A program made the position numbers and the translations under genes. Shown piece by piece: positions 13,335 through 40,415 of a DNA stretch of 64,000 bases. The first letter of the stretch is position 1; every line of letters starts with the position of its first letter. This stretch comes from a virus: positions 1 to 64,000 of IMG/VR virus record IMGVR_UViG_3300035670_000105. The stretch is one strand, 5' to 3'. The notes beneath the pieces were generated by a model. That model saw only the letters and a list, made by a program, of their open reading frames with translations. It was not told the DNA's origin and ran no database searches.

Positions 13335-14623
13335 CCAATCCCTTCTCCCCCCAGCAGCCGCCACGGCTGCATGTCGAACCTCTGCCCACCGGTGCGCTGG
13401 CTGCTGCAGCCGAGCGCCTCACTCACGACAATGGCCAGCCGGTGCTGGACATCAGCGTCTGGCTGCCGAATGAGTGGGCTACCAATGAAGCCCGCGACCG
13501 CAACGGCCGTCGCGTCCACATCGGTGCCACCCACATCGGTGCCACCCGCAGGGTGCCTTCCGAAGACGCCACCGAAGAAGCCTTTGCCTGTTTTGAGCGG
13601 GATGTCTGCTTCAACTGCCGGTACTACTGCACCGACCGTGACCTGGACTGGGACGACGTCGACGACATGGAATGGAATGACGGCGATGGCAACTACTGGC
13701 GACTCAGTGGTGCCACCGCCGACAGCCCCTGTCCTTGCCACCGCGATGGCATCGATGAAGTCAACTGGCCCTGCACGGCCGGCCACGACGAACCTGACCC
13801 CTCGGACTACGAAGACGAAGACGAGGACGAGGACGAGGACGGCGAAGACACTGGTGAAACCATCAATGACGGACTGCTTCACCTCGGCCCGACACGGTTC
13901 ACCACCCGCCGCTACCTCAGCGGTGCCTGTTACACCTACCTCGGCCTACCTCAGCGCTATGAGTTCACCGCTCACCTGCAAAAACTGAGCATCACCGGTG
14001 ACGCCTTCAGCGTCGCCTACACCCGCCGAATGGCGAACACCTTTGACCCCAACCAGACCGTCTGCTGGGGCAATGGCAACACCGTGCCCCAGTCCCTGGA
14101 GGAGGCGGCGGCGGCCTACGCCCAGGCCAATGCCAACGACGACCTCCTCAACGTGCACACCGCTGCACATAACTGCCGGCTAGCAGCAGAGGATCCCACC
14201 CCCTATGAGCTAAACAAGCTCGCCATCGCCCTGCCGCCCACGGCCGATGAAGAGCGCCTGGCCCTCGTGGTGGCCGATGCCGCCACGATGCCCGACGCCT
14301 TCCTGCTGCTGGCGGCTAGCGGTGCTACCACCGGCGATGGCCTCGCCATCGCTGCCGCCCAGTGGGTGAACGCCCTGCCATTGCCCAATGGCCAGCAGTT
14401 CACCGGCTGGGCCACCGCGCCCCTGGCTGGTGGCTGCAGCTGGCTGATCGGCCAGACCGCTGCCACCGGCACAACAGCAGCTCGCTTTGTACTGCTCGGT
14501 CAGCACAACCTCCAATCCCCCACCCCCTCACCTCTTCCAATCCCATGCGACTCGCACGCACTCTCGTCATCGGCTGCGGCGGCACCGGCGGACACCTCGT
14601 CCCTGCCCTTGCCCGTCTGCTGA
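13331..14623 (+). CDS. Prokaryotic E2-like protein (Prok-E2 family D / PRTRC protein B-like) with a Cys-rich N-terminal region and acidic tract
   Basis: MANTFDPNQTVCWGNG resembles the N-x(6-7)-C-W-G catalytic motif; sits between JAB and E1. Confidence 0.6.
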   Translation: MTNPFSPQQPPRLHVEPLPTGALAAAAERLTHDNGQPVLDISVWLPNEWATNEARDRNGRRVHIGATHIGATRRVPSEDATEEAFACFERDVCFNCRYYCTDRDLDWDDVDDMEWNDGDGNYWRLSGATADSPCPCHRDGIDEVNWPCTAGHDEPDPSDYEDEDEDEDEDGEDTGETINDGLLHLGPTRFTTRRYLSGACYTYLGLPQRYEFTAHLQKLSITGDAFSVAYTRRMANTFDPNQTVCWGNGNTVPQSLEEAAAAYAQANANDDLLNVHTAAHNCRLAAEDPTPYELNKLAIALPPTADEERLALVVADAATMPDAFLLLAASGATTGDGLAIAAAQWVNALPLPNGQQFTGWATAPLAGGCSWLIGQTAATGTTAARFVLLGQHNLQSPTPSPLPIPCDSHALSSSAAAAPADTSSLPLPVC

Positions 14624-15267
14624 ACTACCACGCAGCTACCGCGCCGATGGGCGATCGCCATCCCGTCACCGTGATCGACGGTGACACCTTTGAAGAACAC
14701 AACATCAGCCGGCAGCACATCGGCGTTGACCAGATCGGCGTCAACAAAGCCGACTGGCTCGCCGCCCTCTGCCAGCAGCAGGGGCTGCCGGTGGACTCTG
14801 TCCCCAGCTACCTGGACAAGGCGCTGCTGCGCAAGCTGCTGCGCCGTGACGCCAGCCCTGTCCTGCTGGTGGCGGCCGTCGACAACGACGCCACCCGCAA
14901 GCTGTGCATCGATGTGCTGGAAGAATCCAGCCGGGACTTCCTCTTCATCACACCCGGCAATGCCGGCGCGGAGGATCCCGATGCCGCCATCCGCGGCAAT
15001 GTGCTCTGGTATGGCCGCCAGGGGGATGAGGCGATTGGCCTCAACCCCGCCCTGGTGTTCCCAAACATCGAGGAACCCCAGGACGCCATCCCCCGTGAGG
15101 GCAGCTGCGCCACCCAGGCACCATCCTCCCCGCAGTTGATCACAGCCAATGTGCTGGCCGCGGCCTACACGCTCACCGTCCTGCAGAACCTGCTGGATGG
15201 AGCGATCAACACGACCGCGAGCAGCGTCTTCTTCAACGGCCGGCGTTTTGCGCTCTCGGCCTCCTGA
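14545..15267 (+). CDS. E1/ThiF-family Ubl-activating enzyme
   Basis: VIGCGGTGG, IDGDTFEEHNISRQ, NKA, AVDNDATR, GSCA (candidate catalytic Cys), PQLITAN. Confidence 0.9.
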   Translation: MRLARTLVIGCGGTGGHLVPALARLLNYHAATAPMGDRHPVTVIDGDTFEEHNISRQHIGVDQIGVNKADWLAALCQQQGLPVDSVPSYLDKALLRKLLRRDASPVLLVAAVDNDATRKLCIDVLEESSRDFLFITPGNAGAEDPDAAIRGNVLWYGRQGDEAIGLNPALVFPNIEEPQDAIPREGSCATQAPSSPQLITANVLAAAYTLTVLQNLLDGAINTTASSVFFNGRRFALSAS

Positions 15268-20779: not shown

Positions 20780-21003
20780 CGATGCGCCGATTCTGATTGG
20801 CATGGCGATCCTGCTGTTCCTCGGCATCGGAACGATGGCTGGTCTGGTGTGGATCACCAACAACTTGGTGCAGCAAGTGAAGCGAATTGACGGCGAGAGC
20901 AAGCAAGCACTGGAGCGTTCAACAGAAACGCTGCGCCAATGCACCGAGCAGCTCAGGTAGCCCCTCCCCGGGGGCCTTGAGCAACTGCCTTTCATCTCAG
21001 GCA

Positions 21004-21972
21004 ATGGCAACTGCAACCAAGGCTTCACGCAAACGAAAGACTGAAGGCCCCACACCAGAAGAGAAGCTCGTCGCCGGGCTGATCGAACTGCTGGAAGCTG
21101 GCGTCAACCCGTGGCAACGGGACTGGCGCGGCACCAGCCTGGGGCAACATCGCAACCTGATCTCCAGCGAGCCGTATCACGGCGGCAACCCTGCCCTGCT
21201 GGAGATGCAACTGGCGATGCGCGGCAGTGAACTGCCGCTCTGGGCTGGCCACGGCCAGGCCAAGAGCAAGGACTGGTACCCACGCAAGGGCAGCCGCGGC
21301 TGCTACATCGTGCGGCCCCAGCTCAACCGCTACGAGGAACTCGATGAGGGCGGCAAGCCCGTGCTCAACGAGCAGGGGGAAGCGCAACTACGGCAATGGA
21401 CATCGTTCAAGCCGGTGTGCGTCTTCAATGCCGCTGATCTGGAAGGGGAGGGCCTGGCCGAGGCGATTGCCGCGGCCATCGGCACCCCCGAGCAGCGGCA
21501 GGAGCCGGAGATCCTGCAGCAGGCAGAAGCGGTGCTGGGCGCCTGGTGCGTTCCTGTCACCTATGGCGGTAACAGCGCGTTCTATTCGCCCATGGCGGAT
21601 CGGATCACGCTGCCGCCACGGCATCAATTCCTCAGCGGCCCTGGCTTCTACGCCACCTGGGCGCATGAGGCGGTTCATAGCACGGGGCATGGCGATCGCC
21701 TGGCCCGTGACGGGATTGTGCACTTCGCGGGGCGCGCTTCCGAGAGCTACGCAAAGGAAGAGCTGATTGCTGAGCTGGGCGCCTTCCTACTGGGCGTGCG
21801 GCTGGAAATCGGCAGTGCCGTAGAGAACCACGCGGCCTACCTGGGCTCGTGGATTGCTGCGCTCAAAGCCCAGCCCAAGACGCTGCTGCAATCGCTGAGC
21901 GCAGCGACGAAAGCAGCCAACTTGATCCACCCCGAAACCATCACCCCGGCACCAGCCGGTGAAGACCAATGA
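21004..21972 (+). CDS. ardC: ArdC-family antirestriction/ssDNA-binding protein with zincin-like domain
   Basis: PWQRDW, NLIS..PYHGGN, VFNAADL, DRITLP, HEAVHSTGH, YAKEELIAELGA, HAAYLGSW. Confidence 0.9.
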   Translation: MATATKASRKRKTEGPTPEEKLVAGLIELLEAGVNPWQRDWRGTSLGQHRNLISSEPYHGGNPALLEMQLAMRGSELPLWAGHGQAKSKDWYPRKGSRGCYIVRPQLNRYEELDEGGKPVLNEQGEAQLRQWTSFKPVCVFNAADLEGEGLAEAIAAAIGTPEQRQEPEILQQAEAVLGAWCVPVTYGGNSAFYSPMADRITLPPRHQFLSGPGFYATWAHEAVHSTGHGDRLARDGIVHFAGRASESYAKEELIAELGAFLLGVRLEIGSAVENHAAYLGSWIAALKAQPKTLLQSLSAATKAANLIHPETITPAPAGEDQ

Positions 21973-25452: not shown

Positions 25453-26298
25453 ATGAACGACACGCTGGCCTGGATGACAGCTGCGCCCACCGCCCCATCC
25501 CCGCCGGATCGGCGCCGCTACATCGATCCGGCCAGCGGCATCCGCTTCTACCCCATCCCCCCGCCCACCGGCAGCGGCGAGTGGCTGGCCGTCCCCGGCG
25601 TCACCTCGATCCTCAGTGATGCCAGCAGTGAGGAGGACCGCCAGCGGCTGGAGAACTGGCGCCAACAAGAGCTGGCCGCCGGCCGCGATCCCAATGCCGG
25701 CCGCGACCGGGGCACCCGGGTGCATGCGGCGCTGGAGGACTACATCCGTGGCGTCGAACCCAGCTTCTCAACCGATGTGGATGCCGCGGCCTTCAGCGGC
25801 ATGGAGAAACACCTGGCGAGCTACAGCACCTTCCTGTGGAACGAGCGGCCCCTGGTGCAGGGCTGGGAGCACTGCTGGAGTGCCCCGGCCGGGGATCCCG
25901 ATCGCCTGGCCCGGGTGTGGAGCTGGCAGTGGGGCTATGCCGGCACGCCGGATCTGATCGGCAAGCACCGCCGCGGCCTGACGATCCTCGGTGACTTCAA
26001 GACGAGCAACCAGCCCTACTACCGCTGCAGCGGTAGCCAGGTGCCCGCGTTCAAGCGCACCGGCTTCCTCAAGTTCCGCAAGACCGTGCGTCAGCTGTGC
26101 GCCTACAAGCTGGCAGTCGAGGAGATGCTCGATCTCCACATCGACGCACTGCAGATCATCGTCGGCCTGCCGGCTGCCGGTGAATCCCAGATGTTCTACA
26201 TCTCGGGCCCCGACCTGGAGCTGGAGACGGAGAACTTCAAACAGCTGGCGGCCGCCTTCTGGGCCAAGCGCGCCAGCGCCCAACTGCTGGCGGCCTAG
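25453..26298 (+). CDS. PD-(D/E)XK exonuclease (Cas4/RecB-like)
   Basis: GVTSILS, RGTRVH, E, YAGTPDLI, GDFKTS, QLCAY. Confidence 0.85.
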   Translation: MNDTLAWMTAAPTAPSPPDRRRYIDPASGIRFYPIPPPTGSGEWLAVPGVTSILSDASSEEDRQRLENWRQQELAAGRDPNAGRDRGTRVHAALEDYIRGVEPSFSTDVDAAAFSGMEKHLASYSTFLWNERPLVQGWEHCWSAPAGDPDRLARVWSWQWGYAGTPDLIGKHRRGLTILGDFKTSNQPYYRCSGSQVPAFKRTGFLKFRKTVRQLCAYKLAVEEMLDLHIDALQIIVGLPAAGESQMFYISGPDLELETENFKQLAAAFWAKRASAQLLAA

Positions 26299-26843
26299 GC
26301 CTCCTCAAGCCAAGCCCAACACCGCCCGCCCGGCAACACGCTGTAGATAGTCGACCTCGGTATCCGCAACTCCCTTGCGAGACACGAGATCGACTTTGAA
26401 CCTCGTCTTGCGACAAGGCGCCTGATCTCCAGCACTTGCCCCTGATCAAGGCGAGTCCTTGGATTCCGCGCGCCGCGAGACGCCGTCCCGTCCCTCACGC
26501 GATCCAGCTGATTCTGCGAAGGACTCCCATAGGAGAGATTCACCAGTCGGTTGTCCGTCTTGCCCCCAGGGCCATGCAGAACAACCATCCCGTCTGGCCT
26601 CTCGCCCAGAAACGCCTCAGCGACAAGGCTGTGAACCATACAGTTCTCGTGAACTCCACACTTGCTCAATACAAGCTGCAAATATCCATAGGTTGTTGTG
26701 GAGAACTTCCTGATCCTTCCTTTCCTCTTCACCTGGCCGAATCGCCTATGAGGCACAACGCGATCAACGCTGCGCACGCGCCCACGATCTGAAACCTCGT
26801 AGAGGCCTTCGTAGCCACAAACCGCAACCCACCGTTCTCCCAT
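26295..26843 (-). CDS. NUMOD4-HNH homing endonuclease
   Basis: WVAVCGYEGLYEVSDRGRVRS; VHSLVAEAFLG...VLH..G.KTDNRLVNL...N. Confidence 0.9.
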   Translation of the reverse strand: MGERWVAVCGYEGLYEVSDRGRVRSVDRVVPHRRFGQVKRKGRIRKFSTTTYGYLQLVLSKCGVHENCMVHSLVAEAFLGERPDGMVVLHGPGGKTDNRLVNLSYGSPSQNQLDRVRDGTASRGARNPRTRLDQGQVLEIRRLVARRGSKSISCLARELRIPRSTIYSVLPGGRCWAWLEEA

Positions 26844-26865
26844 AGATACTCCAGCTGCAGGCGGC

Positions 26866-27528
26866 CTAAAGCAGGAACTGTTCCTGCAGGGTGGAGACGG
26901 GCCGGCCGAGCAGCTTCGCCAACCCGCCCCACTGGACCTCATTCAGCTCCTGCTCACCACCCGCTTCGATCGCTTCCAGCACGGGGGTGAGCGTGAGGAT
27001 GGCGGCCAGCTCATCGAACAGCTCCGGTGCCGGCTCCCGCTTCTGGCGGATGAACTCCATCAAGGCCTGGCACTGCAGCTGTGGTGGTGGTGGTGGTGCC
27101 GTCGGTTCATCGAGGGCAGAGCCATAGCGCTCCAGCAAGCGGACCAGCTCCCGTGCCAACTCCAGAGCCGAGAAGGCGACGGGACGCTGACTGAGCAACC
27201 GCTGATGCTCCAGCGCAGCCTCGCGGCCGCTCTCCACCCAGATGTAGACGCTGGTGATGTCGAAGTCGATCACCTTGGCGAGCTGCGCAACCGTGCGTGC
27301 CTTGAGCGCGTCGAAGTCGGCGCCGCCGGTCTTGTAGCGATGCAGCATCGTTGAAGAGATATGAAGCGACGCGGCCAGTTCGTTCTGGGCACCAAGGACA
27401 GCGCCGCGTTCTGCGCCCAGACGCCTGAGGGCGTAGTTGATCAGCTCGGCAAAGCGCTCATCCCGCAGGCGCCGCTGGGGATCCTGAGGATTCTCAGCCC
27501 GCCCGCCATCTGCATCCAAGGCTGCCAT
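26866..27528 (-). CDS. HTH transcriptional regulator (repressor-like)
   Basis: QNELAASLHISSTMLHRYKTG HTH; divergent from the primase-helicase. Confidence 0.6.
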   Translation of the reverse strand: MAALDADGGRAENPQDPQRRLRDERFAELINYALRRLGAERGAVLGAQNELAASLHISSTMLHRYKTGGADFDALKARTVAQLAKVIDFDITSVYIWVESGREAALEHQRLLSQRPVAFSALELARELVRLLERYGSALDEPTAPPPPPQLQCQALMEFIRQKREPAPELFDELAAILTLTPVLEAIEAGGEQELNEVQWGGLAKLLGRPVSTLQEQFLL

Positions 27529-27728
27529 GGGGCCAGCGCTCCTGTCGAATCGAGTTCCACCGTTCTAATACAGGCAATTAGCGGTTGTCGCCTGCGGCTG
27601 GTGTAACAACCGGCACTGTTGCGGGAATTGCATCACAGGCCTTCACCTGCCGCGGCCCACCACCCCATGCCCTGTGCAACTGGGGTTGACCCATCACCTA
27701 CCCTCAAGCCGAACCCGGGTTCATCGGC

Positions 27729-30251
27729 GTGGGAGAGAGCGTTGGCAGCCAGCCTTTGCTGGCGTTGGTGTCCCTGCATCACGGCCATCACAACAAGTCC
27801 AAGGACTTCCGAACGGCCGATGCCAGTGACACCTGGACCGTCGCGGCCCTGGACTTCGCCGATCTGATCGATCACATCAGCTGCGGCAAGGCGTTCCTCA
27901 ACTGCCAGCTCGACGGCCCTCGCAAGACCGAGAGCTGCCGCGCCTCCAACCTGATCATCCTCGATGTCGATGGCGACATCACCCTTGAGGAGTTCTGGGC
28001 AATCCCCTTTGCCCAGCGCCACTGCGCCTTCACCTACACCAGCTGCTCCCATCTCGATGATGCCAAGCAGCAGAAGCGACAATCACCGACCAACCACAGC
28101 TTCCGCGCCCTTTTCCCGGCCGAGGCGATCGACATCGGTGAGCCGGGCGGGACTGAGCTGTACGCCGAGCGCTACCACCTGCTGCTGGAGCGCCTCGGGC
28201 TGCAGCTGAAGGACACCTCCCCGGCCAAGCCAGCCCAACCCTGGTATGGCAATGACGCCACCCAGGTGCAGCTAGGCCAGGCCGTGCCCCTGGACTGGGA
28301 GTTCACAGCTGATGCGGTGGACCGGGTACGGGCCAAAGCGATGGGCCGCCAGCGATTGCAAGCCGCGGCCGCTGCCAGCTTTGACGATGACGGCCTGGAT
28401 GAGCAGCGCGCCGTCTACCTGCTCGACAACCTGCTGCGGCCCAGCGTCGATGGCGAATTCTCCAGCTACTGGGTGCAGGTGTTCAACGCCTGCGCTGCCA
28501 GTGGCTCGGACGCCGTCCGTGATGCGTTCCTGGCCTGGCACGACCGCGGCCACCACAGCAAGACGCAGAAAGGCGTAGCCCGCCGCTACGACAAGGCGGG
28601 TAGCCGCAGCGGCCTGGGCAAGCTGTTCGCTCTGGCCAAGGAGCAACACGGCAGCAACTGGTACCAGCTGCTGCCCGTGGAGCTGCGGCGCAAGCGCAGC
28701 ACCTCCACCCCCCCAATCACCCTGATGTCCTCCCGCAGTTGGGATGACATCGCCCCACAACAAGACTTCTCCTCCCCCATTCCTGATGCCGTCTCGCCGG
28801 CCCAGCTCCAACGCATCAGCTTCAATCTCAACTCGCAGGCGCTGGGCTCATCCGCTGCAGACGCCCAGACCCGTGAGGCCGTCGATCTACACAATGATCT
28901 GCTCTGGCGCATCTACCGCCTGGAAGTCGAGCTGATCCACCAGAAGGATGGCAGCGAGGAGGCGGTGGATGAAGCAGAAGGCAGCGCCCTGCAAGTCGAA
29001 TACCGCAACGAACTGGCCAACCTCCTACCGCTCTACGGCCGGGAGAGCTGGCGCATCGACCAGGCCCTGCTGGACATCTTCAAGCGCGAGCACAACCTGG
29101 GCGGTCGCACCAAGCGGGACATCAAACCCCAGAAGCTCAGCGATCACATCCTGGAAGAAGCGGAGTGGCTCCTGCCGGATCTGATGATGCCCGGCCGCAG
29201 CTACATGCTCTACGGCCTGACGGGCACAGGCAAGTCCACGATGGCGCTGATGCTCGCCCGCGTGATCACCGGCACCCCGGATCACGCCGCTTTCCTCGAC
29301 TGCAATCCTGTCCCCGGTGAGATCTTCGGCACCCGTCGCGTGCTCTATGTCGCCAGTGATGGCGGTGATGGAGCCATCACGGATCTCAAGACTTACGCCA
29401 AGCGCCACAAGATGGATCAGGCGCAGTGGTGCGAGGACTACCTGCGCGTCATCGGGGAGAGCACCTGCAATAACGCCACCCCATGGAAGATGAATCTCTA
29501 TGAGATGCATCGCCTGGCCGAAATCCTAGAGGAAGCCGCGGCCGAAGGGGTGCCTTACGCCCTGGTGATCTTCGACTCACTAAAGGCAATCTGCCCGCGC
29601 AACGTGCGTGTTGGCGATCAGATCATCACGGACTACATCGAGATCCTGACCAAGATCTGCTCCTCCCGCGGGGCGGCGTCGCTGTTCATTCACCACCAGG
29701 CCAAGGACACCCCGACATTCCAGGGAGCATCAGGCATTGGCGAGATGATCAGTGGCATTTTCTCCATCAAGAAGAAGGATGAGCAACACCACTTTTGTAT
29801 CGAGAAAACCCGTGTGAGTCTACGCGGAAATCGAGAGATCCCGTACACCATCAAGGACGGCAGGCTTGTACAGCTCAACCACTTTGAAGGTGATGATCAC
29901 AGCACTGATGAAGGCAAGATTCTCGCCATCTTGCAAGAGCACTATGAGCGCCATCGTAGCCGCGTCGCCCACCTCGATGTCACCGATGAGCTACGCAACT
30001 ACGCCGGCATCAGCCGCGATGACCTGCGCATCATGCTCAACCAGCGTGGCGGCAATGGCAAGAGGATCTTCACGAGGCCAGGGCGCAACGACCTTCTCAA
30101 GGAGATGGAGTTAACAGGCGCCATCCGCGAACTAACCCACAAGAAGTTCAAGAACTACGCCATCGCCAGTGCCAAAGGTTTCTGCGCTGACACCACCGAC
30201 CAGCTTCAGATGCCAGCTGACACCGTCGATATTTATCCCGGCTGGGATTGA
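27729..30251 (+). CDS. Primase-helicase fusion (primase domain + PriCT-2-like + AAA_25 ATPase)
   Basis: LDVDG and YTSCSH (primase-like); W..V..A.. PriCT-like segment; Walker A GLTGTGKS; Walker B VIFDSL; IHHQAK. Confidence 0.8.
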   Translation: MGESVGSQPLLALVSLHHGHHNKSKDFRTADASDTWTVAALDFADLIDHISCGKAFLNCQLDGPRKTESCRASNLIILDVDGDITLEEFWAIPFAQRHCAFTYTSCSHLDDAKQQKRQSPTNHSFRALFPAEAIDIGEPGGTELYAERYHLLLERLGLQLKDTSPAKPAQPWYGNDATQVQLGQAVPLDWEFTADAVDRVRAKAMGRQRLQAAAAASFDDDGLDEQRAVYLLDNLLRPSVDGEFSSYWVQVFNACAASGSDAVRDAFLAWHDRGHHSKTQKGVARRYDKAGSRSGLGKLFALAKEQHGSNWYQLLPVELRRKRSTSTPPITLMSSRSWDDIAPQQDFSSPIPDAVSPAQLQRISFNLNSQALGSSAADAQTREAVDLHNDLLWRIYRLEVELIHQKDGSEEAVDEAEGSALQVEYRNELANLLPLYGRESWRIDQALLDIFKREHNLGGRTKRDIKPQKLSDHILEEAEWLLPDLMMPGRSYMLYGLTGTGKSTMALMLARVITGTPDHAAFLDCNPVPGEIFGTRRVLYVASDGGDGAITDLKTYAKRHKMDQAQWCEDYLRVIGESTCNNATPWKMNLYEMHRLAEILEEAAAEGVPYALVIFDSLKAICPRNVRVGDQIITDYIEILTKICSSRGAASLFIHHQAKDTPTFQGASGIGEMISGIFSIKKKDEQHHFCIEKTRVSLRGNREIPYTIKDGRLVQLNHFEGDDHSTDEGKILAILQEHYERHRSRVAHLDVTDELRNYAGISRDDLRIMLNQRGGNGKRIFTRPGRNDLLKEMELTGAIRELTHKKFKNYAIASAKGFCADTTDQLQMPADTVDIYPGWD

Positions 30252-30799
30252 TCACCCGCTTCATTTCCTGCTTCTTCAATTCTTTCATTGGTGATCTATA
30301 GATCATTCGATCTATAGATACACCTTCTTCCTTGCTACTTTGGAGACATTGCTCCGAGACATAGCCATACGCCTCCGGCTGGATCTTAGGGCATGCCGCA
30401 ACCGCTGTTTGACTGGCTCCAGTCTCAGGCAATGCCATAACGCAGGGGTTCAACAGCTCGGCGTCCCTGTGGCTGCAGGCCATTCCAATGTTCACTGCAT
30501 CGGTATCAAGCTGAGACAACCCGGTGAGATCCCAGTCATTGCAATGGATCTCACGGTTCATTGCATCGAGCCTCGCTTTCCGTGTTTGCCTAGATTCCAG
30601 TGTTTGCAAGGGATCTGCAACGATGCTGCATCGCAGGGGGCCTCGTGATGTGCGCGCATGCATGCGCGATCTATCTATGCATTCAAAATCACGCCCCTGA
30701 ATCACAGTTTGTGAAGCACTCGACAGGGACGCCCTGTTCACCCGGGTTGCACAAGCAGTCGAATCCCCCTACGCTCTGGACTGTCGTTGCCCCTGTCCC

Positions 30800-31444
30800 A
30801 TGCGCGAGGTGTTCGGTGACGCCCGACTCGTCACCACCGCCGATGGCTTTGCCCTGGAGGCTCTGGGGCTGCATCGCCCCGCCACGCTGATCGCCTCCAC
30901 CGCTGGCCACGCAGTCCCCGACCTGACGGATTACCTCGGCCGCGTTGTCAGCTTCGTCGGCGCCCTGGAGGCTCCAGGCGAGAACCTGGAGATCCTGCGC
31001 GTCCACGCCAACGAACTGCATCTGGCCCCAGCCGCGGCGGAAGACCCCACCCCCTCGCCTCTGTGGGCCGTCACCTCTGGCAACCTCGGCCGTGATGGCG
31101 ACACCGACAAAGCCGCGGCCTACAACCCCAAGGGTGATCGGGTGACGGCATCGCTGGCCTACGCCAAGAACGACACCCGCACCTCCTGGCTGCGCATCAG
31201 CTGCTACGCCTACTACGCCGCCGCTCCCCTGCTGGCCGAGCTGGAGGCAGGCAGTGCCATCACCACCTACGGCGCCCTGGAGAGCTACGACTACAACGGC
31301 AAGCCTCGCCTGCAGCTGGCCCTGCGCGGCTTCCAGCTCAGCCGCACCGGTGGCACCGCTCGCCCCACGCCAATCACCCTGATGTCCTCGCGCAGCCGGG
31401 ATGACATCGCTCCGCAAACCGACGCTTTCACCTCAGCGGGATGA
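30800..31444 (+). CDS. ssb: OB-fold single-stranded DNA-binding protein
   Basis: GNLGRD, TSWLRISCY, L..GSAITTYGALE.YDYNGKPR. Confidence 0.7.
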   Translation: MREVFGDARLVTTADGFALEALGLHRPATLIASTAGHAVPDLTDYLGRVVSFVGALEAPGENLEILRVHANELHLAPAAAEDPTPSPLWAVTSGNLGRDGDTDKAAAYNPKGDRVTASLAYAKNDTRTSWLRISCYAYYAAAPLLAELEAGSAITTYGALESYDYNGKPRLQLALRGFQLSRTGGTARPTPITLMSSRSRDDIAPQTDAFTSAG

Positions 31445-31448
31445 ACAC

Positions 31449-31999
31449 ATGGATTGGACAGTCGACAACAACGGCAACGAATGCGGTAACTGCCTTTGGT
31501 TCCAGGAAACCGAGGCCAAAGAAGGCTTCTGCTACTACGAGCCGCCTCAAGTCTTTGCCGTTTACGACCGCAAAACCAAGCGGATTGAGCGCGTTACATG
31601 CCGGCCCGAAGCCTATGCCCGCTCCATCTGCAGCAAACACACGCCCATCCCAGGCGTGACCCCCACCCCTACCCCCTGACTCCCGTGAAGACCGCTGAGT
31701 TTCAACTGGGCATGCGCGTTCGCCGCCGCACCGACGAGTCCGCTTTCGTCCGTGATCGCCGCGATCATCCCAAGCTCAAAGGGCGTCGCCCTGGCATCGT
31801 CGTCGGCATGCCCGAGCGACTCGGGGAGCGGCACACCTCTGTTGCCATCCAGTGGGAAGGCAGCACCCGCGTTGACCATGTCATCATCCACCGGCTGGAA
31901 CCACTGCCCAAGAAAGACCAGCCCATCGCCCTCGGCGGCACCTGGCAGGCGGAGCCCGGCACCATGCTCGCCAAGGCCAAGACCATACCCTCAGCCTGA
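31449..31999 (+). CDS. Two small genes: Cys-rich 31449..31679 and SH3/Tudor-like 31685..31999
   Basis: CGNC...C...PP...C...C; FQLGMRVR...GIVV...IQWEG. Confidence 0.55.
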
Positions 32000-32016
32000 C
32001 TCGTCCACGGCCGGCC

Positions 32017-32964
32017 ATGGCATTTGATGCCTCCAGGATTCCCGCAGACCAGATCAAGAAGGCGCGGGAAGCCTATGGCGGAATGATTCAGGGGCGGCCC
32101 ACTGCTAGTGGCATCACCGACGCCGGGGGCGCTGTTGATCCTTTTGACAAGCAACACGACGGCAGCTATGCGGTCAACCCCTGGACCCACAACTTCAACA
32201 CAGACCCCAACCGAGGGAACGTGGCGATCACCAACTACAAGGGTGAAACCGAGTCCGTTCCGTTCTGGCAAGCTGATCGCCGGTTCTCCGCTGACCTCGG
32301 CCTCACCGGCTTTGAAGACATCACCAACCAGCTCAACGAACTGACAGCTCGCTTCTCGGACAGCCTATACCGGCAGACGAAATACGGCTACCAGAATCTC
32401 GCCGAACAGACCGACTCCAAGTTCATCCCGATGAAGCACGGCAAGAACGACCGCAAGCAACGCTGGGGCTGAATCCAACGCGCATCGCCGCAGATTCTCC
32501 TTACCCCTGCTTCAGGTTGATGCACCTCCATGTCCCGCGATCACCTGGCCGCTGCACTCTTCGGGCTGCCCCAATCCCCCAGTGAAAGCCAGAAGCGTTT
32601 CGCTGCTGCCGCGGCCACTCTGATCCTCAAGGATCTGATCACCCAATGCGCCAAGCATGCGTCCCGGGAGGGCCCCGGCGCCCTTGTCGTCGCCATCGCT
32701 GAGAACCGCAAGGAACGCAGCACCTGGGCCACCTCCCACACCCTGCACCACAACCTCGCCATCGCCGAGGAGCTGAACGACACCGCCATGGCTGATGTCC
32801 ATCGGCGGCTGCTGGAGCGCCTTGGCTGCATCGACACCAGCACCACGGCCCTGCTGCTGTTGCTGGAGCGCGATGGCGATGGCCACGGCACCGCTCGCGT
32901 CTACGAGCTGGACATCGACCGCGATCCCGCTGCCGCTGCTGCCGCCATTCGGGAGATCGGCTAA
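32017..32964 (+). CDS. Two hypothetical genes (32017..32472, 32530..32964)
   Basis: Preceded by TACCCT and TACCCC at 25 and 22 nt, respectively. Confidence 0.6.
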
Positions 32965-33656
32965 TGGCTCTCCGCGTTCGCCCCGCCGGCCGCTGCCGCG
33001 GCCACCTGCCTGATCCCGATGGCACCGTCCTCATCCCGCCCGAGGACTACATCGCCGCTGTTCGCAAGACCCTCGGCTGGATCGATCTCGACCCCTGCTC
33101 CACCGCCATCGCCCAGCAGTCCATCGACGCGATGGGCTGGTATCGAGCCGAGGACGCAGAGGCCGCACTCGCCGAACCCTGGGCCGGCCGCGTCTTCCTC
33201 CACCCCCACCCTGACGGCATCATCGCCCGCTACCAGCTGCAGAAGCTGCTGCGGGACTACCTCGCGGATCGCGTCACCGCCGCTGTCCTCCTGCTTGGCA
33301 AGTCCGACTGGCTTCGCTCCGAGCCGCTGCTGCTCTCCTTCCCGTTCCTTTTTCACTACCGCCGCCTCACCCACTGGCGCTGGCTCACCGCAACCCAGGA
33401 GCTGGTGCGCATCAACCCCTCCTTCAACTCCGTCTCCCTCTACCTGCCGGCCAAGGCGAACGGCACCCATTTCGATGACGACGCCCTCGCCCGTTTCCTC
33501 GATGCCTTCTCACCCTTTGGCCGTGTCCTGCTGACAGAAGACCTCGGTGAGGACTGGGAGCAGCACGCCCTGATCGCCACGCGGCGCATGCCCGTGCATC
33601 CCGTCCTCACCACCTCGCGCATCGAGCGGCCCACCATCACCGGAGGCGAGCCATGA
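32964..33656 (+). CDS. Phage N6-adenine DNA methyltransferase-like protein with a degenerate catalytic motif
   Basis: IDLDPCS...AL..PWAGRVFLHPHP (NPPY expected at the last four residues). Confidence 0.6.
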   Translation: MALRVRPAGRCRGHLPDPDGTVLIPPEDYIAAVRKTLGWIDLDPCSTAIAQQSIDAMGWYRAEDAEAALAEPWAGRVFLHPHPDGIIARYQLQKLLRDYLADRVTAAVLLLGKSDWLRSEPLLLSFPFLFHYRRLTHWRWLTATQELVRINPSFNSVSLYLPAKANGTHFDDDALARFLDAFSPFGRVLLTEDLGEDWEQHALIATRRMPVHPVLTTSRIERPTITGGEP

Positions 33657-34659
33657 CCGCTCGCGCCCCGTACTGCACCATCACCGGCCGCGTCATCAAT
33701 GGCGGCTGCAGTGGCGTTGCCCTTCTCAATGGCCACCCCCGCTGCCGCATCCCTGTCCTGACAGCCGGTGCACCATCGATTCAGACCGAAAGCGGCTGGC
33801 TCAGACCCGAACGCTCCCTCGTCTACGACAACCCCACCCTCCTACTCCATCACGCCGCAGCCACCCACCCAACCGTCATCCTCACCAAGGCGCAGCTGGC
33901 TGGCTTCTCCAAGACCGCCACCCGCCTCATCGCCCTTCTGCGCCCCTACCCCTGGGCCATCCCCCAGCCCCTCGACTGGCCCGAACCTGAACTCCTCCTC
34001 TTCTCCACCATCAACAACCCCCTGCTCTTCGATCTCATCCTCCTCAAGCGGCAGCTGCAGCAAGTTGAAAAGCTCCAGCTCCATACCCTCAGCGGCAGCT
34101 CATTCCTCGCCTACCGGCGTTGCTGATCTCCATGTCTGACTGGTCAGACCCCCTCTGGCATCAGCTCTACACCTCCCCCCATCAGCAGGCGATCCTCTCC
34201 GCACCCACCCCGCCCCAATCCCCCGACCCCGCCTACATCCAGATCCTCCAGCAGGCCGCCCAGCAGGCCGTCCCCCTGGAGGCCATCACCTTGACGGGGA
34301 TCGATGAAACCGCTCGCGCCCTCGATTGACCCATGAGCTTTCGCGCTTCTGCCGGTGCCCGGCCCTTCGGCCGCGCTGCCCTCAGCGGCGGCAAGCGCGG
34401 ACGCCCCACCGCCAATGCCACCTTCCAGTTCGCCGGCAGCGCTGAGCGCCTCAGCCCCCAGGCCCAGCGACTCATCGCCTCCCAGCGCTGGAATGAACAA
34501 CGCGGACGGGAGAAACCGGAAACCGCTCCCCAGAACCGCTCCATCTCCTCCGGCGCAGAGATCTCCGCCAGCCGCGGCACCTACCGCAGTGAACGCCGCT
34601 TCGCTGGTGAACAAACACCCTTCTCCACCGGCTCTGCCGCTGCCAATCCCTTCTCCTGA
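33653..34659 (+). CDS. Three hypothetical genes (33653..34126, 34132..34329, 34333..34659)
   Basis: Contiguous, translationally coupled ORFs. Confidence 0.5.
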
Positions 34660-34663
34660 TTCC

Positions 34664-35245
34664 ATGCTCAAGAACGACACCTGGATCCGCGAGCAAGCTG
34701 AACGGGGCATGATCGCCCCCTTTACCCCTGAACTCATCCGCCGCGTCGACAATCACGCCGTCATCTCCTACGGCCTGTCATCCTTCGGCTATGACCTCCG
34801 CCTCTCCTCTGATCAGTTCCTGATCTTCCGCCACATCCCCGGCACCGTCATCGACCCCAAGGCGTTCAACTCCGCCAACCTGGAGCGCGCCGTCTTGCAT
34901 CACGACAGCAACGGCAGCTTCTTCATCCTTCCGGCCCACTCCTATGGCCTGGGCGTAGCACTGGAGCGACTGGAAATCCCCAACGACATCACCTGCCAAT
35001 TCATCGGCAAGTCCACCTACGCCCGTTGCGGACTCATCGCTAATCTCACGCCCGGCGAAGCCGGCTGGCGCGGACATCTCACCCTGGAGTTTTCCAACTC
35101 CTCCAGTGCTGACTGCCGCATCTACGCCAACGAAGGCATCGTCCAGGCGCTGTTCCTGGAAGGCGAGGCCTGCGCTACCTCCTACGAGGACCGCCAGGGC
35201 AAGTACCAGGATCAACCTGCAGCCGTCACCCTCGCCCGCGTCTAG
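34664..35245 (+). CDS. dcd: dCTP deaminase
   Basis: MLKNDTWI, SYGLSSFGYDLRL, GKSTYARCG, PGEAGWRGHLTLE, YANEGIVQ, KYQDQ. Confidence 0.95.
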   Translation: MLKNDTWIREQAERGMIAPFTPELIRRVDNHAVISYGLSSFGYDLRLSSDQFLIFRHIPGTVIDPKAFNSANLERAVLHHDSNGSFFILPAHSYGLGVALERLEIPNDITCQFIGKSTYARCGLIANLTPGEAGWRGHLTLEFSNSSSADCRIYANEGIVQALFLEGEACATSYEDRQGKYQDQPAAVTLARV

Positions 35246-39524: not shown

Positions 39525-40415
39525 GTGTCCACCGACTTTCTCAGTCGCACCGCCGCCCGCTACCCCCTGCTGCGCCCCGACGAGGAAATCGAGCTGGGGC
39601 GCCAGATTCGCGCCTGGCAGGATCATCCTGACGGCCCGGACCAAGCCCCTGCTGCAGTGCAACGACGGGGCAGGCGAGCGCAGGATCGCTTCCTCCTCTG
39701 CAACCTTCGCCTCGCGCACTACATCGCCCGCCGCTTCAACAATCGCGGTGTGCCGATGGAGGATCTCGTCCAGTCCGCCACCGAAGGGCTGCTGCAGGCC
39801 GTACGCCGCTTTGAGCCGGCCAATGGCTTTCGCTTCTCCAGCTATGCGGTGTGGTGGGCGCAGCAGAGCTGCCAGATCGCCGTCGCCACGCAGGGCGGCG
39901 CCCTCAGGCTTCCCACCACCGTCAGCGAGGGATTGCGGCGTGTCGCCCGCGCTGGCGCTCGCCTGCGCGCTGAACTGAACCGCCCACCAACCGACGCCGA
40001 GATTGAAGAAGCGGCCAACCTCAAGCCCGGCCAGCTGCGCAATCTCCGCGCTGCCGCCAGGGCGGCGGACACCCGCTCCCTGCATGACCACGCCAGGCAG
40101 GGGGGCGGCTCCGATCCCAGCAGTGGAGACGCCACCTGGCTCGATCTCCTCGCTGACGACGACCAGCACGCCAAGGAGCTGGAGCAGCGCGATCTCAACC
40201 GCAGCCTGCGTCAGCTGATTGAAACCACGCCCACTCTCACTCCCCAGCAGCGGGAGGTGCTGCGATGCCGTTACCTGACCCCCACGCCACTGACCCATGT
40301 GCAGATCGCCTCGCGGCTGAACATCAACCGGGACACCTGCCGCAGGCTGGAGCGCAGCGCCCTGACCGTGCTCAAGGCGCGGGGGGTGCGGATCCGGGTC
40401 TTCCTGCCGAGCTGA
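39525..40415 (+). CDS. RpoD-like sigma70 factor
   Basis: YPLLRPDEEIELGR (1.2), NLRLAHYIARRF, DLVQ..TEGL..AV.RFEP..GFRFSSYAVWW, region 3, region 4 HTH. Confidence 0.92.
   Translation: MSTDFLSRTAARYPLLRPDEEIELGRQIRAWQDHPDGPDQAPAAVQRRGRRAQDRFLLCNLRLAHYIARRFNNRGVPMEDLVQSATEGLLQAVRRFEPANGFRFSSYAVWWAQQSCQIAVATQGGALRLPTTVSEGLRRVARAGARLRAELNRPPTDAEIEEAANLKPGQLRNLRAAARAADTRSLHDHARQGGGSDPSSGDATWLDLLADDDQHAKELEQRDLNRSLRQLIETTPTLTPQQREVLRCRYLTPTPLTHVQIASRLNINRDTCRRLERSALTVLKARGVRIRVFLPS

Follow-up and report, generated by a model that had tools for sequence, protein, structure and literature searches.

A peptide of 16 residues is present, nearly unchanged, in two otherwise unrelated replication proteins of an uncultivated phage, namely in the linker of a primase-helicase and in the C-terminal tail of a single-stranded DNA-binding (SSB)-like protein. 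Most likely, the shared peptide is a docking motif under selection and represents an internal version of the tails that two T7 proteins have in common, and it probably couples SSB-coated DNA to the primase-helicase. The initial annotation of this DNA proposed that one short linear motif is common to both proteins, and this proposal is supported by the co-conservation of the motif, its co-variation between lineages and its recurrence in a second phage group. The arrangement predicts a specific peptide-mediated contact and provides a sequence-level handle on how the replisomes of uncultivated phages hold together.

The two proteins and their shared peptide

The features discussed below are located in the window, which is the whole stretch of DNA analysed (64,000 nucleotides, positions 1 to 64,000 of the IMG/VR record IMGVR_UViG_3300035670_000105).

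27697..27705, + strand: promoter-like word CCTACCCTC, 24 nt upstream of the GTG start of the primase-helicase gene
27729..30251, + strand: primase-helicase gene, 840 aa (open reading frame; AAA_25 match, E 3e-16; 20 homologues at 100-33% identity)
27729..28703, + strand: N-terminal primase-like domain, aa 1-325 (D79, D81, D83, S107 and H108 invariant in 22 homologues)
28710..28778, + strand: linker copy, PPITLMSSRSWDDIAPQQDFSSP, aa 328-350 of the primase-helicase (16-mer at 28713-28760)
29142..29711, + strand: RecA-like helicase/ATPase domain, AAA_25, aa 472-661 (E 3e-16, 60 bits, cut-off 27)
30228..30248, + strand: C-terminal tip of the primase-helicase, DIYPGWD, acidic and aromatic
30800..31444, + strand: SSB-like gene, 214 aa (homologues; two OB folds and a disordered tail predicted)
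31367..31441, + strand: tail of the SSB-like protein, TPITLMSSRSRDDIAPQTDAFTSAG, aa 190-214

The start of the primase-helicase gene at 27729 is supported by the placement of CCTACCCTC, which is one mismatch away from CATACCCTC. The invariant residues of the N-terminal domain form an acidic D-x-D-x-D triad and an S-H pair. The PHROG family 'DNA primase', phrog_2135, matches this domain weakly in the window protein (E 0.0088) and with an E value of 4.5e-13 in the marine relative L030, and the atlas neighbours of the homologue P0036 carry PriCT_2 or BT4734-like_N (score 0.97). Searches of Pfam, NCBIfam and PDB sequences with the N-terminal domain give no match. The helicase domain is also matched by a KaiC-type ATPase family (25.4 bits), and comparison of the helicase-family profile with PDB sequences gives no match. 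The N-terminal domain ends near aa 325, and the linker copy is located between it and the AAA_25 domain. P329 of this copy is invariant in all 22 helicase homologues, within a linker that is variable and rich in insertions and deletions around this residue. The close homologues P0026-P0028 likewise end with PGWD, and the ends of the primase-helicases in other lineages, FDLFTAGG or FDLFTASGD, resemble the SSB-like tip DAFTAA.

The 214-aa protein is assigned, with moderate confidence, as a two-OB-fold SSB-like protein and a candidate binder of single-stranded DNA. When its AF2 model (pLDDT 68) is used for a Foldseek search, the best eight matches are two-OB SSBs of Thermus/Deinococcus (E 9e-6 to 1e-3, probability 0.99-1.0), and the subsequent matches are SSB and PriB chains. 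VIA-align of this model with SSB/PriB gives Z scores of 6.5-7.5 and an rmsd of about 4 A over about 80 residues (aa 89-184). The confidence is moderate, because these Z scores are below 8. The protein matches neither a Pfam family, including PF00436 (SSB), nor a PHROG family, and its only match in NCBIfam is PriB_gamma (E 0.015), with 15 bits, under the cut-off of 72. Of the name SSB, which was given in the initial annotation, the part that stands is the predicted fold, which matches two-OB SSBs, but no SSB sequence family is matched.

Disorder is predicted for the tail of the SSB-like protein, with pLDDT values below 50 at residues 179-187 and 203-214. AF2 places a beta-strand at residues 192-196, in a block with a mean pLDDT of 74 that is flanked by the stretches below 50. 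Across 25 sequences, the tail residues P191, R198, A204 and A213 do not vary, and conservation is 90% or higher at L194 and F210. This tail is bipartite. Module 1, which is the 16-mer at 31370-31417, has the form P-x-x-L/I-M/F/Y-S... and is common to the tail and the linker. Module 2 is the C-terminal tip, which contains an acidic residue and a Phe, and is DAFTSAG in the window. The Phe residue of DAFTSAG is not C-terminal in the clade of the window, and several members of the SSB-like family end with EVPF or PIPGF. In some lineages, module 2 equals the tip of the host SSB (EVPF) and is mirrored at the C-terminus of the helicase.

A recount of both copies reproduces exactly the coordinates, peptides and base counts given earlier. 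The linker 16-mer, PITLMSSRSWDDIAPQ, is encoded at 28713-28760 and represents aa 329-344 of the 840-aa primase-helicase, and the tail 16-mer, PITLMSSRSRDDIAPQ, is encoded at 31370-31417, represents aa 191-206 of the 214-aa SSB-like protein and stops 8 residues short of its C-terminus. The two copies are identical at 15 of 16 residues and 43 of 48 bases. Four of the differences are synonymous (TCC/TCG, AGT/AGC, GCC/GCT and CCA/CCG), and the single nonsynonymous one (TGG/CGG) changes W to R. The pS and pN values are 0.34 and 0.028 respectively, by Nei-Gojobori counts, and the probability that at least four of five randomly placed differences are synonymous is 0.014. Beyond the 16-mer, a weaker likeness is seen between QQD-FSSP of the linker and QTDAFTSAG of the tail. 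Each 16-mer contains only two acidic residues, and neither is located at the extreme C-terminus. The copies constitute the longest direct repeat within 26000-34000 (family D1, 53 nt), and a six-frame fuzzy search of the whole 90,162-bp genome, with up to 7 substitutions allowed, finds only these two. The score of the window pair is 76. In an unbiased scan of 86 loci, in which primase-helicases were compared with the C-terminal 45 aa of every other + strand open reading frame, the background has a mean of 27, a standard deviation of 4.8 and a 99th percentile of 46, so that the window pair is ~10 standard deviations above it.

Co-variation in relatives and selection on the peptide

The motif is kept in both proteins of relatives, as had been predicted for homologous pairs, and in close relatives it is neither lost nor free to drift. 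Its conservation reaches homologues with identities down to 32-43%, and the tail is conserved in 24 SSB-like homologues, at identities down to 43%. The linker and tail peptides are alike within one genome and unlike between genomes. The pairs located on the same contig are KPPTVLMRARSAADIAP and KPPTSLMSARSQADIAP in L001, LMRARSKSDIEP and LMAARSAADIAP in L002, and GKTLGSAM and GKTLGSAY in L006. In addition, VIFSEASPS of P0100 matches VIFSEASPT of P0046, two proteins that were paired on account of the equal length of their contigs. When five linker/tail pairs, including P0100/P0046 and the related lineages L001 and L002, are permuted, the true pairing is the best of 120 permutations. The linker types VLYSKASP and VLFSKP are matched to tails at the family level only, and the former corresponds to tails with VLYKA(P/D)SAS. 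P0083, P0100 and P0102 carry the motif twice or in tandem. The motif has the features of a short linear motif, since it is a short conserved island with disordered, indel-rich flanks, occurs in unrelated proteins and is sometimes present in several copies. Such lineage-specific co-variation offers natural swap material for studying the evolution of replisome specificity. An assembly artefact, which had been named as a possible source of the likeness, is excluded, because the same linker/tail arrangement recurs across many independent assemblies.

A metagenome scan yields five loci. A genome scan yields a contig of a Prochlorococcaceae MAG that carries a helicase homologue, and no SSB-like gene is found near this homologue. 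Single-protein and A1 scans of IMG/VR find nothing, and blastn and tblastn searches of GenBank phages are negative for the window region, for the window helicase and for both SSB-like proteins, that of the window lineage and that of the marine group described below.

As judged from the codons, both copies are shown to be under purifying selection at the peptide level. The synonymous sites between the copies of relatives are largely saturated, which indicates that selection acts on the peptide and not on the DNA. The codons for identical residues of linker and tail differ at 10 of 10 positions in L023, 9 of 9 in L011 and 8 of 14 in L001, and the Ser codons of the matching peptides include AGC versus TCC. 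Peptide-level selection, which the initial annotation proposed from the four synonymous differences of the window pair, is thus also found in relatives. In the window pair, only 4 of the 15 identical residues have differing codons, fewer than in the pairs of relatives. A fairly recent copying event in the clade of the window is possible, because the DNA sequences of this pair are closer to each other than those of the pairs in relatives.

The same closeness of the window pair, and the arrangement of its copies as direct repeats 2,657 bp apart with 87-90% DNA identity, would fit a neutral relic of duplication or gene conversion, or an element that acts at the DNA or RNA level, with a functionless peptide. 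This explanation is hardly credible and is already largely refuted. The differences in the window are synonymous in four of five cases, matching peptides are encoded by mostly differing codons in relatives, and conservation extends to homologues at 32-43% identity. In the marine group described below, moreover, the SSB-like gene is located upstream and the peptides are not homogenised, but the core is still invariant. Gene conversion is rejected as a general cause, because the codons of relatives differ and homogenisation is absent from the marine group.

The initial annotation also considered that the shared peptide is a common modification or degradation signal. Such a signal would be read, for example, by a ubiquitin-like conjugation system or a protease and would have no role in replication docking. 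Ser and Thr are abundant in the motif, and a match to ThiF/E1 is present in this genome at 14548-14913. However, ThiF is found only in the window genome, G000, and four other phages with 97-100% completeness (G005, G001, G003 and G004) have the linker/tail arrangement without ThiF. A ubiquitin-like modification signal is disfavoured, because this E1 protein is confined to one of the five near-complete phages that share the arrangement. In addition, the window 16-mer contains no Lys, and the location of the motif in the C-terminal tail of an SSB and in the linker of a primase-helicase suits docking within a replisome. The possibility of a modification or degradation signal is considered very unlikely.

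A second phage group with a comparable arrangement

A marine group of 79 IMG/VR loci has the same N-terminal primase domain, but a VapE-type helicase. The linker contains GYxExD in 70 of these 79 loci. All 38 loci with enough upstream DNA encode an SSB-like protein of ~219 aa with two predicted OB folds, which ends with GYAEVDPTPDY, and the core G-x-A-x-G-Y-x-E-x-D is invariant in both marine proteins. The SSB-like gene is located ~2.5 kb upstream of the primase-helicase gene, whereas it is located downstream in the window lineage. Within-genome homogenisation of the linker and tail peptides is not detected in this group (permutation p 0.76). A family-A polymerase is encoded in four of four marine records.

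The two SSB-like families show no detectable sequence homology in a profile comparison and are alike only in predicted fold, the models behind the two identities having pLDDT values of 68 and 61. The arrangement marks these two unannotated protein families as likely SSBs. GenBank phages contain no full-length relative of either primase-helicase or either SSB-like protein, and distant matches among them are confined to the VapE domain of the marine helicase.

Candidate partners and related systems

In the docking mechanism proposed here, one copy of the motif would be presented by the disordered linker that follows the primase domain and the other by the disordered C-terminal tail of the SSB-like protein. 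Both peptides would bind, in competition or in turn, to a common site of one partner, and the near-identity of the linker and tail peptides implies competition for a single site. In this way, single-stranded DNA coated with SSB would be coupled to the primase-helicase by a hand-off or a tether comparable to that of the T7 gp4 and gp2.5 tails.

In the window lineage, the partner site may be located either on the helicase domain or on the OB core of the SSB-like protein, although this assignment is made with less confidence. P0029 and the window protein are 94% identical in the N-terminal domain, but the identity drops to 19% for the linker and 27% for the helicase. The primase domain, which had been listed among the possible partners, is disfavoured, because primase domains with 94% identity carry quite different linker motifs. 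The motif type is inherited with the helicase half and not with the primase domain. The site may be located on a phage protein inherited with the linker, because the motif type follows the helicase half and turns over quickly. The partner may differ between phage groups, because the marine group encodes a family-A polymerase and the window lineage encodes none.

Alternatively, the peptide may be a shared docking motif for host Pol III, the host clamp or a host SSB-interacting protein, by which the phage brings the host polymerase to the primase-helicase and the SSB that it encodes itself. The window genome and its relative G005, which are both 100% complete by CheckV, encode no polymerase or clamp, as far as family A/B polymerases and Pol III alpha (PF00476, PF00136 and PF07733) and the beta clamp were searched for, and the host polymerase is probably needed because of this. 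The EVPF/PIPGF ends in the SSB-like family resemble the tips of Prochlorococcaceae MAG SSBs (DEEVPF, EEEVPF and EDEIPF). However, this likeness is confined to module 2 and is lacking in the clade of the window (DAFTSAG), and module 1 is missing from the three host-type SSB tails examined. Module 1 also changes radically among related phages (ITLMSSRS..DIAP, VIFSEASP, VLYSKASP and KTLGSAM), which is unexpected if the partner were a conserved host hub. The consensus for binding to the beta clamp is Q-L-[SD]-L-F, and module 1 lacks its leading Gln. A host protein as the partner of the motif is regarded as rather unlikely. The core P-x-x-[LI]-[MFY]-[SRK] was itself tried as a clamp-binding motif and rejected: its invariant Pro stands where Gln is expected, and where Gln is present (QSLF and QSVF), the register is one residue short.

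Returning to docking within the phage replisome, one tentative possibility is that the tail mimics the linker and thereby couples the two proteins without a loader, as it copies a linker peptide that docks on the phage's own helicase/SSB module. If so, the tail would imitate the ligand that the linker provides for a neighbouring helicase subunit or for the OB core of the SSB, and SSB-coated DNA would compete with this intramolecular ligand and recruit, open or switch the primase-helicase. The motif and its pocket would co-evolve fast, as a lineage-specific code that insulates the replisome of each phage. The tip formed by module 2 would, in some lineages, copy that of the host SSB and borrow the host polymerase, and the device would be general among uncultivated phages.

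Primases are coupled to SSB-coated templates via short peptides and OB-fold or pocket contacts. E. coli DnaG binds to SSB-Ct, motifs of human PrimPol bind to RPA70N, and an acidic primase peptide binds to the OB domain of an SSB. In these systems, the primase peptide does not copy the SSB tail, whereas the two are nearly identical here.

The T7 system is similar in that a phage primase-helicase and an SSB carry look-alike short disordered peptides, for which docking is predicted here. The acidic tail and terminal Phe of gp4 bind to two basic patches of T7 polymerase (PMC12230644). The front basic patch is the anchor of the gp2.5 tail, for the placement of which the gp4 tail peptide of PDB 6P7E served as the template (PMC12339929). 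The marine group looks especially T7-like, with its family-A polymerase, a helicase that ends with ...NDF and an SSB-like protein that ends with ...PDY, and the phage polymerase is a plausible common partner in this group. However, the copy in the helicase is located internally, within the linker, and not C-terminally as in gp4. The motif sequence is unrelated to that of T7, and the window motif has a hydrophobic core, TLM, and lacks a strongly acidic character, with two Arg and two Asp residues in its tail copy. The window lineage encodes no polymerase, the helicase is of the AAA_25 or VapE type with a primase-like domain that sequence searches do not relate to solved structures, and two OB folds are predicted for the SSB-like protein. 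Separately from the linker copy, the window helicase ends with the acidic and aromatic tip DIYPGWD. With the present arrangement, the idea from T7 that a helicase and an SSB share a tail for one partner is extended to an internal copy, to phages without a polymerase and to two types of helicase.

The tail of the SSB-like protein resembles bacterial SSB-Ct, which recruits partners, in that it is disordered and has a conserved acidic and aromatic tip, and the EVPF end of some family members is the same as in cyanobacterial SSBs. In E. coli, RecO binds to the last 9 residues of SSB (PMC7913777). The SSB-like protein differs from bacterial SSBs in the lack of a Pfam SSB match and in its bipartite tail, with module 1 located upstream of the tip.

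The shared peptide and the two proteins that carry it

The window phage encodes nearly the same 16-aa peptide in the linker of its primase-helicase and near the C-terminus of its SSB-like protein, as listed below.

27729-30251, + strand: primase-helicase ORF, 840 aa
28713-28760, + strand: linker copy, encoding PITLMSSRSWDDIAPQ
30800-31444, + strand: SSB-like ORF, 214 aa
31370-31417, + strand: tail copy, encoding PITLMSSRSRDDIAPQ

Retranslation and base comparison bear out the coordinates of the initial annotation, both its peptides, the identity of 43 of 48 bases and the synonymous nature of four of the five differences; the fifth changes Trp to Arg (pN 0.028, pS 0.34). The peptide repeat is the longest direct repeat within 26-34 kb, and a six-frame fuzzy search of the 90,162-bp genome, which is rated 100% complete (CheckV; IMG/VR virus record), detects no copy besides these two. 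When each primase-helicase is scanned against the final 45 residues of all other + strand ORFs at 86 loci, the window pair scores 76, as compared with a background mean of 27 (sd 4.8).

The 840-aa protein is a probable, not a proven, primase-helicase. This assignment follows from an AAA_25 RecA-like ATPase domain (aa 472-661, E 3e-16), a weak match of the N-terminal domain to the PHROG 'DNA primase' (E 0.0088 in the window; 4.5e-13 in a relative), an acidic triad and a Ser-His in this domain, both invariant among homologues, and the ESM Atlas, in which the homologue P0036 adjoins clusters with PriCT_2 and BT4734-like_N. Searches of Pfam, NCBIfam and PDB sequences with the N-terminal 325 residues give no match. 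The motif (aa 329-344) follows directly on the N-terminal domain, in a variable, indel-rich linker, and its first Pro is invariant (22/22 homologues). The gap of about 550 bp between the helicase and SSB-like genes (30252-30799) looks AT-richer than its flanks by eye and contains a long - strand ORF (30148-30741, 197 aa) without family match. A gap of similar size is present between these genes at the homologous loci L001 and L002.

The 214-aa protein matches no Pfam or PHROG family. In a Foldseek search, its AF2 model (pLDDT 68) best matches the Thermus and Deinococcus SSBs with two OB folds (E 9e-6 to 4e-5) and then SSB and PriB chains, and residues 89-184 of the model align with SSB/PriB at Z 6.5-7.5 (VIA-align). 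The protein is regarded as SSB-like with moderate confidence on the basis of this model. Its tail is bipartite: module 1 is shared with the linker, and module 2 is a C-terminal tip (DAFTAA, HAFDEAA, EVPF or PIPGF) that is mirrored by helicase C-termini in several lineages (FDLFTAGG, FDLFTASGD; EEFDF in L006). The AF2 monomer has a beta-strand at tail residues 192-196 (ITLMS), within a block (191-200) whose mean pLDDT is 74 and which is flanked by stretches below 50. The model provides a lead that module 1 may dock in cis on the OB core. In five SSB-like homologues (P0045, P0067, P0076, P0077 and P0013) the gene call adds 100-400 aa at the N-terminus; these extensions could be genuine fusions with a further domain or result from miscalled start codons, the ORF then running through the upstream gap.

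Conservation in relatives and selection on the peptide

The tail is kept in 24/24 homologues of the 214-aa protein (identity 96-43%), with the consensus P-x-S-L-M-S-S-R-S-x-x-D-I-A-P-H...A-F-x-x-A-A. Five loci, four of them from metagenomes and one from IMG/VR, provide three further distinct pairs, each on a single contig.

Linker and tail peptides of the further same-contig pairs
L001: linker KPPTVLMRARSAADIAP; tail KPPTSLMSARSQADIAP
L002 / L004: linker LMRARSKSDIEP; tail LMAARSAADIAP
L006: linker GKTLGSAMTLDSTALEE; tail GKTLGSAYAPESETALSDEEAF

The L006 pair is the most distant, with a helicase 29% identical to that of the window and an SSB-like protein recognised by the family profile at E 6e-30. 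The tails of diverse SSB-like members, obtained by searching 1.8 billion proteins with a profile, match helicase linkers found in a separate search. The P0046 tail (...KKPTVIFSEASPT...) matches the linker of P0039 and P0100 (...PAPRVIFSEASPS...), and the tails of P0054 and P0062 (...VLYKA(P/D)SAS...) match the linkers of P0029, P0031 and P0032 (...PQVLYSKASPS...). P0046 and P0100 are probably encoded on one contig, because they share the same longest contig in ENA (18,512 bp). The motif is kept in both proteins of related phages, and the true pairing of five linkers and tails gives the best score of all 120 permutations. These results support the earlier proposal of a shared short linear motif and extend it to relatives and to a second phage group. 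Some proteins contain two motif copies, in tandem (P0083) or about 45 residues apart (P0100, P0102). A primase-helicase homologue is also encoded on a Prochlorococcaceae MAG contig (L086; JBATEO010000147.1, 5156-7927; profile E 4e-237), with a degenerate linker motif and no SSB-like gene within the flank of about 8 kb on either side; the contig may come from a phage and have been mis-binned, or represent the remnant of a prophage.

Where linker and tail of a relative have the same residue, they mostly use different codons (10/10 in L023, 9/9 in L011, 5/7 in L006 and 8/14 in L001, including AGC versus TCC for Ser). Therefore, neither a DNA-level element nor recent gene conversion is the general cause of the likeness. 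The codon usage indicates that selection acts on the peptide, not on the DNA. In the window pair the codon differs at 4/15 such residues, so that its DNA is more alike than in relatives, which makes a more recent copying event in the window's clade possible.

Candidate binding partners of the motif

No family A/B polymerase, Pol III alpha or beta clamp is found in the window phage or the L006 phage, both 100% complete. Of five near-complete phages with the linker/tail arrangement, the window phage alone carries a ThiF/E1 gene, and the arrangement appears from gene content to be independent of a Ubl system. P0029 and P0031-P0035 are mosaics whose break, near aa 325, coincides with the domain boundary: their N-terminal domains are 72-94% identical to that of the window, whereas their linkers, helicases and C-termini are 12-30% identical. 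For P0029, with the motif VLYSKASP, the identities are 94% (N-domain), 19% (linker) and 27% (helicase). This mosaicism indicates that the primase domain and helicase half have been swapped between phage lineages, and that the motif type is linked to the helicase half and presumably also to the SSB-like gene next to it, but not to the primase domain. The main rival explanation is that the common partner is a host protein. Some phage SSB-like members end like the host-type SSB tips of a Prochlorococcaceae MAG (DEEVPF, EEEVPF, EDEIPF); module 1 is not found in these host-type tails. Because of this evidence on the partner and the fast turnover of module 1, a phage-encoded, co-inherited candidate site on the helicase domain or SSB core is favoured.

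The closest known case is that of T7. The acidic tail and terminal Phe of the T7 primase-helicase gp4 bind basic patches of T7 polymerase (PMC12230644), and the tail of the T7 SSB gp2.5 binds the front basic patch, its placement having been modelled with a gp4 tail peptide as template (PMC12339929). Unlike in T7, the helicase copy of the window phage lies within the protein, acidic residues do not predominate in the motif, no polymerase is encoded in the lineage and the proteins belong to different families. A phage without polymerase can need a tailed SSB, as exemplified by SPP1 (PMC3561973). The open-access literature yielded no description of an SSB tail copied in a linker.

A marine group with another peptide, and neighbouring genes

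Searching IMG/VR with the helicase-family profile yields 80 loci, 79 of which belong to a group of marine phages (about 70-82 kb). The primase-helicases of this group have an N-terminal domain 30-36% identical to that of the window and a VapE-type helicase (PF05272, E 2e-49). The linker contains G-[YFW]-x-E-x-D at aa 296-338 in 70/79 loci, and a protein of about 219 aa ending with GYAEVDPTPDY is encoded about 2.5 kb upstream in all 38 loci with sufficient upstream DNA. This protein matches no family, nor is sequence similarity to the SSB-like family of the window detectable; two-OB SSBs are again the top match of its AF2 model. Both marine proteins have an invariant core, G-x-A-x-G-Y-x-E-x-D, and differ in their preferences elsewhere, and within-genome homogenisation of linker and tail is not detected (permutation p 0.76). 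A family-A polymerase is encoded in 4/4 marine records checked (L067, L010, L072 and L079), and the marine helicases end with ...NDF. Marine linkers also contain, about 30 residues past GYxExD, a conserved AT-hook-like stretch (helicase aa 343-352 in L029/L030, for example) with the consensus K(K/R)RGRPKK and a near-invariant GRPK core, which Pfam AT_hook matches weakly (E 0.15).

In the window, an HNH/NUMOD4 homing-endonuclease-like gene (26295-26942, - strand; NUMOD4 E 1.5e-13, HNH_3 E 1.9e-9) lies between a PD-(D/E)XK exonuclease gene and a regulator-like gene. The syntenic stretch of L002 (exonuclease, regulator-like ORF, helicase) contains no ORF of at least 120 aa in between, and the HNH/NUMOD4 gene looks like an insertion in the window phage. 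A candidate anti-restriction factor in the early region is an ArdC-like protein (20887-21972, + strand; ArdcN E 4e-18, zincin-like metallopeptidase MPTase-PolyVal E 1.5e-32). The ORF at 34355-35245 (+ strand) has a dCTP deaminase-like domain (PF22769, E 1.8e-22, aa 107-267) preceded by a Pro/Ser/Ala-rich extension of about 100 residues, and its start codon may be miscalled. A sigma-70 family factor with matches to regions 1.2, 2, 3 and 4 is encoded at 39525-40415 (+ strand). With at most one mismatch allowed, the window contains 20 copies of the word CATACCCTC, as compared with 10.3 expected, and one of them is located 24 nt upstream of the helicase start.
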